DNA of 64,000 nucleotides from Octopus vulgaris (lineage: Eukaryota). The position numbers and the translations under genes were made by a program. The notes beneath the pieces are model-generated. The model saw nothing but the letters and a program-made list of their open reading frames with translations. It did no database searches and was not told where the DNA came from. This document shows, piece after piece, positions 6,197 to 58,649 of this stretch. Within the stretch, counting starts at the first letter, position 1. Every line of letters starts with the position of its first letter. The stretch covers positions 21,638,001 through 21,702,000 of the forward strand of contig OX597830.1 in the NCBI GenBank assembly GCA_951406725.2, given 5' to 3'.

Positions 6197-6692
6197 TTTC
6201 TTTATTGGCCACACAGGGAGGGCTGAACAAAGAAGGGACAAAATACAAAGTAGAGCTTTTCGTTTTTGAAAGAAGAGAAGGAAAAAAAAGTGGGTCGAAT
6301 TCCGATCAAACAAAATCGATCGATAGGGATCGATAGGGATCGTGTATCACAGAAATGTCAATGTAAAAAGGGAAAACAGATTAGGTTTGTCCATGGATAC
6401 AAAATCCTACGGAAAAGACCACGGGAACCTTGGGCAATAGTGTCATGCAAAAAGAAAACACATTACAGTAAGTGGGTCTCTCCCCCCCTTTTGTGGGGGG
6501 GGTCATAGGATTATGCTCAAGCTGGTTCCGTCATTCACACGTGCCATCTTTGCTACATTCACCCATGTTTTTTTGAAACATTCACTAGACAAAACTTCCC
6601 TCTCTACTCTCATCTTCCTCTTCAAGTGATACTTGAAGAAGTTGACGAGAGATTGACCAGAGAGGAAAGTGTTTGTCTCTAGATCTTTCAGA
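6197..6692 (-). mobile_element. Tx1/L1-clade-like LINE 3' end: ORF2 C-terminus (6503-6692) plus ~300-nt 3' UTR
   Basis: Peptide LKDLETNTFLSGQSLVNFFKYHLKRKMRVEREVLSSECFKKTWVNVAKMARVN resembles Tx1-type ORF2 ends; the UTR ends ...ttcagccctccctgtgtggccaataaagaaa; second copy at 1-191. Confidence 0.6.
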
Positions 6693-6746
6693 CACATCCT
6701 GGGTGGCCAGTTTGTATAAGAAGAGATGTTGTATATATTTTAACAT

Positions 6747-7890
6747 ACAAGAACCCCGGTATCGAAAAGTTCCAGGACTACTTATGTTAAATAATAATAA
6801 TAATAATAATAATAAAAGTACTTATTTACCTAAGTTTTAGCATCATCTCCTCAAAAATAGTCATCTTGCGCAGCAATACACCGAACCAGCGTGGGGAATT
6901 CCGCAGGTGCTAAATCTGGTGAATAGGGTGGGTGCAGAAGCGATACCATGTTGTCTTTGGCGAGAAATCACGAGCGATGACAGCTCAGCGAAGAATCCAT
7001 CTCTTCGCGCTCCACAAATCCTGTTTGTTTTGCCTTCAAAACGTTGCAGTAGGACCCTCGATCGGCAGTCAGGCTCTGGGGGACGAATTCTCGATGTACA
7101 ATACCACGGATATTCGCTTTTTACTCTTTTACTTGTTTCAGTCATTTGACTGTGGCCATGCTGGAGCACCGCCTTTAATCGAGCAACTCGACCTCAGGAC
7201 TTATTCTTTGTAAGCCGAGTACTTATTCTATCGGTCACTTTTGCCGAACCGCTAAGTTACGGGGACGTAAACACGCCAGCATCGGTTGTCAAGCGATGTT
7301 AGATGGACAAACACAGACACACAAACATATACACACACACATACACATACATATACATATATACGACGGGCTTCTTTCAGTTTCCATCTACCAAATCCAC
7401 TCACAAGGTTTAGGTCGGCCTGAGGCTATAGTAGAAAACACTTGCTCAAGGTGCCACGCAGTGGGAGTGAACCTGAAACCATGTAGTTCGTAAGCAAGCT
7501 ACTTACCGCACAGCCGTGAGCTGCGGCTCTGTCGTGCTTCTTCAGTCGTGGAGATGAAGGGCTCTTCCATTGTAACGACTGTTGCCTCGTTTCAGGGTCC
7601 TACCCGTAGACCCAACTCACTTCACTGGTGATGACTTCCCAAGTTTAACGCAAAATTTCACGTTGACTCTTTGTTCCAACTTCCTGTCCATGACAAAATT
7701 CGCAGACTACAGCGTACACGTGATCACAAAAACATAAATTTCGTAACTTCCGAAGTAAACACAGTGACGTTACGCGGTACACTGCCTCATGAAGATCACT
7801 GCTCACTCCCATTGCGCACGCAACCGTGTGCTGCCATCTCTTGGCGCACTACAGAACTAGTCCGAGAACTTTTTGGTGCCACCTCGTGTA
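6747..7890 (-). mobile_element. Internally deleted mariner (Tc1/mariner) transposon, interrupted by a SINE
   Basis: Minus-strand relics MDRKLEQRVNVKFCVKLGKS, ..SWVYG*DPETRQQSLQWKSPSSPRLKK, HPPYSPDLAP and C-terminal RCIAAQ-DY; imperfect TIRs (aaaagttccaggacta / tagtccgagaacttttt) with TA ends. Confidence 0.88.
7118..7515 (-). mobile_element. tRNA-derived SINE family S2, near full length
   Basis: Head ggctgtgcggtaagtagcttgcttacgaactacatggtttcaggttca; central gccttgtgagtggatttggtaga.ggaaactgaaagaagcccgtcg; tail gactgaaacaagtaaaagagtaaaa. Confidence 0.9.
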
Positions 7891-55224: not shown

Positions 55225-55830
55225 TGGCGAGCTGGCAGAAACGTTAGCATGCCGGGCGAAATGCTAAGCAGTATTTCGTCTGTGTTTACGTTCTGAGTTC
55301 AAATTCCGCCGAGGTCGACTTTGCCTTTCATCCTTTCGGAGGGGGGGTGTCGATAAATTAAGTACCAGTTGCATACTGATCGATCAAATCGACTGACCCC
55401 TTCCTCCCAAAAAAAAAATTTCGGGCCTTGTGTCGAGAGGAGAAAAGATAAATCCCAAAGCTTGTTACTCCGAGTTCCACGTAACCAATCGGTAATAATC
55501 ATAAGTTTAGTCAGAAGAAATGAAGGAATTTTATTCACTTTATTTCATTTAATTTCCAAGGAAATCTTTCCTTTAGTGCTTCAGAATTATTGTGCTTCTC
55601 GTGGAACGATTTCTTCATTTCCTCTGAACAACATCATTATTATTATTATTAAGGTGGCGAGCTAGGAAAATTGTTGGCACGCTGGACGAAATACTTAGCG
55701 GTATTTCGCCCGTCGCTAAGTTCTGAGTTCAAATTCCGCCGAGGTCAACTTTGCCTTTCATCCTTTCGGGGTCGATTAAATAAGTACTAGTTACCCACTG
55801 TGAGGTCTTGTGCTTATAGTAGAAAGGATT
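55225..55830 (+). mobile_element. Two SINE S1 copies with tail B (55225-55447, 55652-55830)
   Basis: S1 head and body; tails cgggccttgtgtcgagaggagaaaag and gaggtcttgtgcttatagtagaaagg. Confidence 0.88.
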
Positions 55831-58427
55831 TTTCTTATTATTATTATTGTTATAATTATTATTATTATTATTATTATTATTATTATTATTATTATTATTA
55901 TTATTATTATTATTATTGTTGTTGTTGTATCCTTCTTCAAATTTTCTTCCATTTCTCGCCGAGTGTTTTCCGTACACCTTGGGCAGAGAAGCTCATTGTA
56001 TGCATTCCCAGATTACACAAGCAAATTCACGGGTAAAATATGTATTTAAAAAAAGTTAATAAATAAATAAACTCATGAATGGATGTTGTTTTCACAGCGA
56101 TAATGCTCTTCTCAGTACATGAGTCGTTCCAGTTAACACGATTTTTTGCACGTCCTGTAGGGATGGTAAGCCTGGTATCATTTTCAAATAGGTTTCAGTA
56201 CCTTATTATTATCATCATCATCATCATCATTATTATTATTATTATTATTATTATTATTATTATTATTATTATTATTATTATTATTATTATTACTATAACT
56301 ATTACTATTACTATTATTATTATTATTATTATTATTATTATTATTATTATTATTATTACCAATATACTATCCTGCATACTATCAAAATCGTTTTATTCCT
56401 GCACACCATCGCACACGCGTACACACATACACACACACACACACACATACACACACACATACACACGCACACACACTCACACACACGCTATCATACATTA
56501 ATCTATATCCACTTATCCTCAGTTAAGTACAGATCGATCTATCCCTATCTCGTCACATGTTTAACTACTACTGCTGTTGCTGCTACTACTACTACTATTG
56601 TTATCCACACATCCTTATGTATCTCCATATACTTCTCTACTTCTTCAACGCTGCAATATTAATCATTAGATTTATATTGATGTCGTACATCAGAGACCCC
56701 ATAAAATATTCTCCAATATCGTTGATGGATGCAACATTGCCGTAGAGCTGCCTTGGCTTCTTCAACTCTTCATTATCCCAAACACAATCACTCCACATCT
56801 CATGAGAACATCGCACCGCTTCCTAAATATGAATAGCAGCTAGAGTGCAACTAGAACCCTCAGTGTCGCTACACATCCTAGGCCACCCTAACTGCTTCTT
56901 TTTCTATAGAAAAAAAATTTTTCCGTCTTCTCATCTGTTTCTTGGATCGGTGTTTTCCTATCAAACTGTGCCAACACGCCATCGCGCCATTGCGGCCTGT
57001 GTTGATGGAACTAGCTTGTTCTCTCTCTATATATATCTCTATCTATTTCTCTCTCTTTCTCTCTCTTTCTCTCTCTATCTATCTATCCTCTATCTCTATC
57101 TATCTCTATCTATCTTTCCCTCTCTCTCTCTTTCTCTCTCTCTCTATCTTTCTATCTCTCTATCTCTATCTATCTCTATCTATCTCTCCCCCTCTCTCTA
57201 TATATATATTTCTATCTATCTCTTTCTCTCTCTCTTCCTCTCTCTCCCATTTTCTCCCTCCTTCCTCTCTTTCCCCTCTCCTCTCTCTCTTTCTCTCACC
57301 TTGTTTCTCTCTTTCTTTCTTTCTTTCTTTCTTTCTTTCTTTCTTTCTCCCCTCTCTCTCTCCCTCCCACCCTACTTTCACGCTCTCTCCCTTGCTTCTG
57401 TCTTCTCACACTCAGTTCAACTTTGATATCCCCAGTCATTTGGTTTTATTCCTTATCTTGTGTTCCCTTTACATCGTCGACCTCTTTCCTGTCACCTCCA
57501 TCAATATTCATTCCTTCATATATAATGCCACCCTCCATTTTCCTTATTTACTATTTCCACACTCAGGTAACCTAACCTAAACGCCTCGCGCGAATCTTCC
57601 ATTGTCCACTGCTTCTATGAACTGAGATATCGAAGACAATATTGCCGCAATGCCAATCTTGTTTCCTCCAAAAACTCGAGACGCAACAAACATAAAAAAA
57701 TATAAAGAAAACATACGCATCTCCCTGCTCCCTAAATATGGATAACACACAACTACAACCTAACAGAAAGACAGGCAGGTATTGGGTGGTTAATGGGTGG
57801 GGTATAGTTGTGAATAGTTGTACTTCACAGAGAAGGTGGGGTGGTTATGTATGAAAGAAATTGATAGGTGCACTAGGGCCATTTTATGAGTAGATATAAG
57901 GAGAAAGATAGGCAGATGTCAAGGATTTGAGGAGTAGGTGTAGAGAGTAATGTAGGTAAATGTTAGAATATTGGTGGGGAGGTGTGGGAGATATTTGTTA
58001 TTAAGTGTGGGGAGAGGTTGAGTAGTTATGGATAAACATGTTACGTAAGACACATCCGATGTGCTTTCGAAACAATTGTAGTACTCGACGACCTCTTCCA
58101 TCACTTTTATTTATAGATTTGGTTATTATATTATAAGCAATGCGTGTTGCTTTCGAAATGGAGTTGTATAGCACCTGTCATCTAAACGGAATTTACTGTC
58201 TGATCTCGATATGGGATGAACTGTTTTCGATGCATTGATTAATAGATTTTATTGATCAATTATCGAGTCATCCGCGTTTTCTATACAAGCCGTATTTATG
58301 CAAGAGACTAAGAAACTGCATTCCACCACAATTATTCAACTGATCCTAACAATTATGCATACAGACACAGATATGCATACACGCACACTGTCATCCATAC
58401 TTATATATATATATATATATATATAAT

Positions 58428-58649
58428 CGGCGAGCTGGCAGAAACGTTAGCACGCCGGGCGAAATGCTTAGCAGTATTTCGTCTGCCGTTACATTCAAAT
58501 TCCGCCGAGGTAGACTTTGCCTTTCATTCTTTCGGGGTCGATAAATTAAGTACCAGTTACGCACTGGGATCTATATGATCGACTTAATCCGTTTGTCTGT
58601 CCTTGTTTGTCCACTCCATGTTTAGCCCCTTGTGGGTAGTAAAGAAATA
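58428..58649 (+). mobile_element. SINE S1 (tail A) in (TA)n
   Basis: ggcgagctggcagaaacgttagc...gccccttgtgggtagtaaagaaata. Confidence 0.9.

Follow-up and report, generated by a model that had tools for sequence, protein, structure and literature searches.

Structured 3′ tails linking a LINE end, an ORF1-only element and the two tail types of a SINE in Octopus vulgaris

A 64-kb stretch of the Octopus vulgaris genome (64,000 nt; contig OX597830.1 of assembly GCA_951406725.2, positions 21,638,001 to 21,702,000), here termed the window, was analyzed for retroelements that end in related structured tails. The elements concerned are S1, a short interspersed element (SINE) that occurs with two alternative tails, A and B; a truncated long interspersed element (LINE) at position 6197; and a half-LINE-like element in which the sole open reading frame (ORF) is ORF1. 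Comparison of their termini supports a common origin for the 3′ ends of the LINE, tail A and the ORF1-only element. Tail B matches neither tail A nor the LINE beyond chance, only the ORF1-only tail, and the relation as read from these alignments is therefore a chain that runs from the LINE through tail A and the ORF1-only element to tail B, rather than a single motif. The interpretation that we favor, as somewhat more likely than not, is that the ORF2 proteins encoded by sister LINEs stringently recognize a structured 3′ end without poly(A), and that the SINE and the half-LINE travel as passengers. The data examined were the window sequence, protein collections and public contigs of four runs from four organisms.

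The tail hairpins are located at 25955–25967 on the forward strand for tail A and, on the minus strand, at 3038–3026 for tail B, 34648–34635 for the ORF1-only element and 6223–6208 for the LINE. The four ends were found where a preliminary description of the window had placed them, and the position 25959 that it quoted falls within the tail A hairpin. In all, the window contains 11 tail A and eight tail B hairpins. Similarity was assessed by comparing the last 61 nt of the ends with 2000 dinucleotide shuffles for 12 pairs that were picked after the ends were known. Zero of 2000 shuffles equalled the observed similarity in each of six pairs, comprising tail A with the LINE (three), tail A with the ORF1-only element (two) and the LINE with the ORF1-only element (one). 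The LINE end, previously described as the looser match, is actually the closest to tail A, with 37 of 46 columns alike and a BLAST E value of 1.9e-6. Tail B and the ORF1-only tail agree in 20 of 23 aligned columns that lie equally far from both 3′ ends, and this similarity was equalled by 0 and 1 of 2000 shuffles. When the whole window was scanned with the LINE tail as query, ten A tails ranked first and the ORF1-only tail next; with tail B as query, the ORF1-only tail followed the eight B copies with a thin lead (30 versus 28). The ORF1-only tail possesses the pyrimidine tract and AATAAAG of the tail A and LINE type, but a B-type stem. Four further LINE-like ends of the window that were inspected, which we take to be R4-, CR1-, RTE- and Penelope-like, lack the motif.

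Nineteen SINE rows (11 tail A and eight tail B, with a truncated A-type copy near 43740 excluded) were aligned with MAFFT. Tails A and B fell into register without gaps and without being forced, and RNAalifold returned the 4-bp helix of the preliminary description. Two stem pairs flip from C-G to G-C between the tails, 93.4% of the 76 helix cells are paired compared with 27.6–51.3% for slid partners, and the two tails agree in C-CTTGT-G and in its distance to the 3′ end. The closing pair is less uniform, being GU in nine rows, GC in four, AU in two and unpaired in four; its 5′ base is variable in tail B with no compensating change. A lower helix that pairs the pyrimidine tract with AATAAAG can be folded in the LINE, ORF1-only and tail A ends, and 112 of 121 of its cells pair in tail A. 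The tail fold may thus be larger than reported earlier and two-tiered. The terminal fold of the LINE (6198..6234, minus strand) consists of the upper stem at 6223–6208 and a 9-bp lower helix that contains the AATAAA hexamer; its hairpin has a z-score of −3.14 and pair probabilities of 0.82–1.0 in contexts of 40 to 306 nt. The tail A hairpin forms with probabilities of 0.42–0.97 in five of six whole elements, but with 0.07–0.37 in four of them when the terminal 60 nt are folded. The ORF1-only hairpin (34635..34648, minus strand), which follows an A-type pyrimidine tract, has a 6-nt loop and a probability of at least 0.94 in the last 40–60 nt. Its positions do not figure among the 40 contig variants listed, to which 301 further variants belong.

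From these comparisons we infer recognition of the hairpin by a reverse transcriptase (RT), the clade of the driver and the pairing of LINEs with tails. Related autonomous octopod LINEs, most likely of the L1/Tx1 group, would end in a structured 3′ signal of ~40 nt composed of a pyrimidine tract, a small stem-loop and AATAAAG without poly(A). The LINE ORF2 protein would bind this signal and begin target-primed reverse transcription just behind it, which would result in target-site duplications (TSDs) of 11–19 bp. One passenger would be an internally deleted, HAL1-like family that retained ORF1 and acquired a LINE-type end. The second would be S1, which would owe tail A to the 6197 LINE lineage and tail B to a sister of that lineage nearer to the ORF1-only element, and which exchanges its tails even within dimers.

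A series of observations weighs against this interpretation. All 15 double-change cells sit on the split between tails A and B and hence represent one event counted many times, the shuffle test of covariation is inflated by the relatedness of the copies, and six of 16 substitutions in the paired columns of ten tail A copies break pairs. The covariation asserted in the preliminary description, in favor of which stand the RNAalifold helix and the two double-sided pair changes, is suggestive only given the single split. The TTGT loop, which was said to be constant, is kept in A and B, but the LINE loop measures 7 nt in the best fold, lacks TTGT and is unlike that of the SINE. As the loop confers specificity in ZfL2 elements, in which the stem is exchangeable (PMC4176376), the 6197 LINE may represent a sister of the actual partner. 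Folds of the SINE tails are no more stable than those of shuffled sequences (z −1.25 to +0.98 in eight of eight), and the probability of the tail B hairpin is 0.48 or lower in six of six whole-element folds. The ORF1-only hairpin is outcompeted in contexts of 100–204 nt or the full untranslated region (UTR), where its probability is ~0.01, and the ORF1-only fold with a z-score of −3.40 is a different structure. The LINE is represented by a single 3′ end for which no TSD was found, and no RT was recovered from the window or in protein searches. Scanned with the ORF1-only tail, the window contains one unrelated site that scores 35.5 and so exceeds the LINE end at 32. Finally, the similarity of tail B is at chance level both to tail A, where 1038 and 1019 of 2000 shuffles did as well, and to the LINE, where 1514 and 1801 did.

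The unremarkable SINE folds, the weakness in context of the tail B and ORF1-only hairpins, the terminal A-run of one S1 copy and the presence of AATAAA in the tails of A, the LINE and the ORF1-only element all accord with another explanation. The common tail could be a passive remnant or could act as a polyadenylation signal. In that case the SINE and the half-LINE would have gained LINE ends by template switching, a relaxed RT would prime on the A-rich terminus, and the hairpin would go unread. This is unlikely, as 18 of 19 SINE tails stop at a uniform fixed point without poly(A), the stem of tail B is kept through double changes even though this tail has no AATAAA, and the LINE hairpin is very stable. 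The lack of poly(A) noted originally therefore holds throughout the SINE tails except at 13474. The chance-level scores of tail B bear instead on the possibility that this tail is unrelated, and that its likeness to the ORF1-only tail and its compensation relative to tail A reflect coincidence or the convergent origin of a short motif. The brevity of the 20-of-23-column match and its narrow lead over the next site in the window are in keeping with this view, as is an estimate, under a uniform null, that two double changes on one branch would pair by chance in about one case in nine. However, the shuffle results for tail B with the ORF1-only tail, the equal distance of the match from both 3′ ends, and the C-CTTGT-G and end spacing common to A and B render an unrelated tail B improbable. 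Of the one stem-loop that was proposed for all four ends, a common 3′ end of the LINE, tail A and the ORF1-only element is upheld, to which tail B is attached solely through the last.

S1 is a short, non-coding, interspersed sequence of ~230 nt with about 20 matches within the 64 kb, and its copies occupy varied sites. Monomers with tail A are present on the forward strand at 25748..25980 (11-bp TSD), 45240..45470 (19-bp TSD with one mismatch, inside a second SINE family) and 58426..58650 (within an (AT)n tract), and a 5′-truncated copy with tail A is at 15414..15574 (forward strand, 15-bp TSD). Tail B terminates 5′-truncated copies on the minus strand at 3013..3160 and 47438..47572 (exact 12-bp TSD), and forward-strand copies at 25445..25652 (an older monomer), 55222..55448 (a monomer) and 55650..55828 (with an internal deletion). 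Five dimers have one common junction. Three of these combine an internal tail A with a terminal tail B, at 37893..38258 (minus strand, with an internal tail A in the left unit, tail B in the right unit and a 16-bp TSD), 37478..37671 (minus strand, 5′-truncated) and 11625..12034 (forward strand). The other two, at 46870..47283 (forward strand) and 13449..13850 (minus strand, A-run at the end), have tail A in both units. Dimers with the same junction that end in either A or B point to tail exchange, which supports the view of S1 as a modular element that swaps tails. The internal A tails of the dimers have a G-U closing pair and no AATAAA in five of five cases, whereas the closing pair is G-C in four of six terminal A tails; two changes typical of the internal tails are both G-U wobbles.

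TSDs were counted at sites outside microsatellites and were identified in five of 15 S1 insertions examined (11, 12, 15, 16 and 19 bp). Overall, the TSDs of 11–19 bp that had been described were apparent in six of 17 elements examined, but not for the LINE stub. The head of S1 has no ARAGORN match and no Rfam tRNA match; A- and B-box-like words were spotted by eye against what we take to be the box consensus. The S1 core pattern produced zero matches in metagenome, viral and prokaryote collections. The possibility that the S1 body is the Meta domain was dropped, as motif searches of published supplements and full texts revealed no matching SINE. Another SINE, likewise abundant, is ~400 nt long, contains a microsatellite and is presumably of the CORE type (OR1/OR2-like); it is found for example at 7117–7518, 26061–26458, 36978–37467, 41024–41503, 44280–44710 and 54613–55080. 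A copy of this family received the S1 insertion at 45240.

The ORF1-only element spans 1654 nt on the minus strand (34623..36276) and is flanked by an exact 14-bp TSD at 36277–36290 and 34609–34622. Its ORF1 (34820..36163, minus strand) encodes two RRM-like domains, a CCHC knuckle, a charged linker and a conserved C-terminal domain, and is broken in the window copy by in-frame stops at 35260, 35245, 35191 and 34954. As the C-terminal part aligns with four relatives and is followed by a UTR of only ~200 nt, there is no room for ORF2. Relatives of ORF1 number 451 at E ≤ 0.001. No EN (endonuclease) or RT domain was detected in the relatives scanned, a word-indexed protein search at near lengths returned nothing, the alignment matched nothing among proteins of 1508–4305 aa, and a metagenome search with an ORF1 relative found nothing. 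Proteins homologous to the window elements came from Octopus bimaculoides, O. vulgaris, O. sinensis and Argonauta hians. An alignment-based structural model of ORF1 (pLDDT 85) resembles proteins with RRMs in tandem, with an E value of 2e-4 in Foldseek and, for VIA, a Z of 9.5 and an rmsd of 2.5 across 79 residues; the model from the single sequence (pLDDT 33) was unusable. The zf-CCHC match (E 0.0035) is under the Pfam cut-off, and Atlas assigned a ZCCHC3-RBD-like domain at 0.90. The protein is thus of type I (RRM and CCHC), a feature that is not diagnostic of Tx1. The C-terminal domain of ~90 aa behind the charged linker (34840–35160, minus strand) is conserved in P0004, P0070, P0102, P0128 and P0157 and has no Pfam match.

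The element and its flanks attracted 1336–2232 contigs per run, many of them 80–95% identical, and all 30 bins were covered in each of the four runs. An empty site, in which 34608 is joined to 36277 and which therefore lacks the element and one TSD, was recovered in all four runs and hence in four organisms. The full coverage and the empty sites establish the ORF1-only element as a genuine multi-copy family that has undergone insertion; among the contigs listed, none covers it end to end, and with 896 further loose ends outside the listing a parent that bears ORF2 is conceivable. The charged linker varies among copies, with a joint and loose ends at 35061–35162 and 35263 in three to four runs, which indicates several subfamilies. 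The window copy sits in a high-copy repeat, and one contig runs on for 35 unlike letters beyond its 5′ end. This host repeat (34353–34608 and 36291–36553) has flank bins that are 10–100 times deeper and contains a 175-bp partial tandem duplication with a period of ~360 bp. The 175-bp direct repeats were considered as long terminal repeats (LTRs) or a giant TSD and ruled out by the empty site, which makes them part of the host repeat. Just past the TSD (minus strand, ~34610–34560) is a core with CTGATGA and GAAAC and a palindromic tetraloop that we take to be a minimal hammerhead-like motif; no hammerhead match was obtained in Rfam at E ≤ 10. The core suggests that the host repeat is a Penelope pseudo-LTR or a retrozyme.

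The 5′-truncated LINE-like stub (6197..6712, minus strand) comprises 69 codons of a probable ORF2 C-terminus (6712–6506, stop at 6505–6503) and a 3′ UTR of ~305 nt that can be aligned with that of the ORF1-only element in the last ~45 nt only. A second copy of the coding end (1..195, minus strand) is 89% identical over 190 nt and is cut by the window edge before the 3′ UTR. The stub has no Pfam, Atlas or phage match and no usable PDB match. Among longer proteins it matched one, an O. bimaculoides gene model, with 24 of 27 identities over the first stretch. The first 37 residues of this model extend the stub frame ~10 codons upstream and its C-terminal half is homologous to ORF1 (204 aa, 30%), a junction which hints that the ORF2 end of the stub and the ORF1 family belong together. 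In octopus gene models that include pieces of these elements (P0002, P0026 and P0045), ORF1 is joined to WD40 or LDL-receptor domains or the LINE end is joined to ORF1; such chimaeras are probably annotation artefacts and possibly exonisation. The coding ends at 6587–6678 and 83–174 (both minus strand) fold into a hairpin of ~90 nt (z −5.4 and −1.9), and 5′ truncation lies just upstream in both. Judged from these two copies, the hairpin may act as a hotspot of truncation, or it may be characteristic of a short, non-autonomous form.

The LINE was originally labeled Tx1-like, a label that has as its basis a resemblance of the 69-aa stub to Tx1/L1 C-termini that we assume and the non-diagnostic type I ORF1; the TSD lengths we likewise presume to be of L1/Tx1 character. 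Type I ORF1s are described as 'consistent with' Tx1 but are also reported in Jockey-superfamily elements, outside L1/Tx1, in the text available of PMC5203782. Together with the lack of a family assignment for the stub, this leaves room for stringent tails whose driver belongs to another group (for example a LINE of the I, Jockey or CR1 group that has a type I ORF1), or for a stub that is itself short and non-autonomous, as the start of both window copies within ~50 nt of one point might imply. Either alternative is decidedly unlikely: the O. bimaculoides model continues the frame upstream and carries the ORF1 homologue, and L1-Tx1 elements are abundant and recently active in O. vulgaris as far as the accessible text relates (PMC13282606). 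The fuller proposal that an animal Tx1/L1 RT of the stringent type reads a structured hairpin without poly(A) and serves the LINE, the half-LINE and the tail-swapping SINE, one of the commonest octopus repeats, with A and B recording co-evolution with sister RTs, is put forward tentatively. Of the three-tier system under one RT that was initially envisaged, the multi-copy ORF1-only tier and the modular SINE persist, but the different LINE loop and the connection of tail B via the ORF1-only element alone weaken the case for a single RT.

The window is microsatellite-rich, with 32% masked by TRF, and an Rfam scan of the window returned no family at the gathering score. Decayed fragments at 12213–12755, 14345–16639, 21565–21924, 41810–42193, 52400–54184, 36550–36930 and 6740–7110 are presumably of R4/Dong, RTE, CR1, Penelope and mariner type; six that were scanned had no Pfam assignment.

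Octopus SINEs designated OK, OR1 and OR2 were reportedly described by Ohshima and Okada in 1994, and S1 resembles them in its abundance. The same is true of the octopus 'tRNA-Deu' and 'tRNA-Core' classes, for which the available part of PMC8967140 gives no partner LINE. S1 is very likely in repeat libraries already under one of these names, although no named family was matched here. About 11.6% of the O. vulgaris genome consists of SINEs, and most of the recently active SINE families are unclassified; the sections consulted name no partner LINE for them (PMC13282606). Judged by the portions accessible, tail sharing, compensatory hairpins and ORF1-only LINEs have been described before (PMC3747384, PMC3472496, PMC5786205, PMC5753468). 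The L2-clade systems UnaL2/UnaSINE, ZfL2-1 and ZfL2-2 likewise possess a common tail with a small stem-loop, a conserved loop and no poly(A) (PMC4176376, in part). Their recognition is experimentally shown, unlike the sequence-based octopus case, and their tails end in tandem repeats, TGTAA in UnaL2 (PMC3747384, in part), whereas the octopus tails terminate in a short AAAGAAA, are flanked by long TSDs and seemingly have a driver other than L2. Monocot L1/ZmSINE2-3 and Chlamydomonas L1-1_CR/SINEX-3 have a ~50-nt L1-clade 3′ sequence in common with SINEs and a hairpin with compensatory changes, as in the maize and sorghum L1-clade tail, and a conserved loop (PMC3472496, PMC3747384, in part). These pairs are from plants and algae, have poly(A) or poly(T) ends and are the sole L1-clade entries in a 58-pair SINE/LINE table that, as far as it was available, includes no Tx1 and no octopus pair (PMC3747384). 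HAL1, HeT-A and Ag-Sponge resemble the ORF1-only element in having ORF1 alone, a LINE-type 3′ end, multiple copies and a TSD. As far as the text at hand extends (PMC5786205, PMC5753468), the octopus element differs in its type I ORF1 with a conserved C-terminal domain and in a tail that bridges two SINE tails; its parent LINE was not identified here. Crocodilian SINEU elements are ascribed to a Tx1 driver (Tx1-Mar) and, like the ORF1-only copy, inserted into other repeats, but the accessible account (PMC4494074) has them ending in poly(A) and linked to Tx1 by target preference, with no LINE bearing the SINEU-1 3′ end, whereas in octopus the link is the tail. The available text of a bivalve SINE partner survey (PMC11481361) does not mention Tx1, and literature searches found neither an animal Tx1 tail common with a SINE nor a report of the octopus pairing. 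The families or their common tail may already be recorded in Ohshima and Okada (1994), Bao and Jurka (2010), Repbase, Dfam or the O. vulgaris repeat library.

If the driver belongs to another clade, the findings would add one more SINE/LINE pair and a new half-LINE family. If the driver is Tx1/L1, the tail would offer a directly mutable test substrate of 40 nt, and stringent recognition of tails within the L1 group would be documented in an animal, with a bearing on the view of Ohshima that the ancestral L1 was stringent and its relaxation came later.

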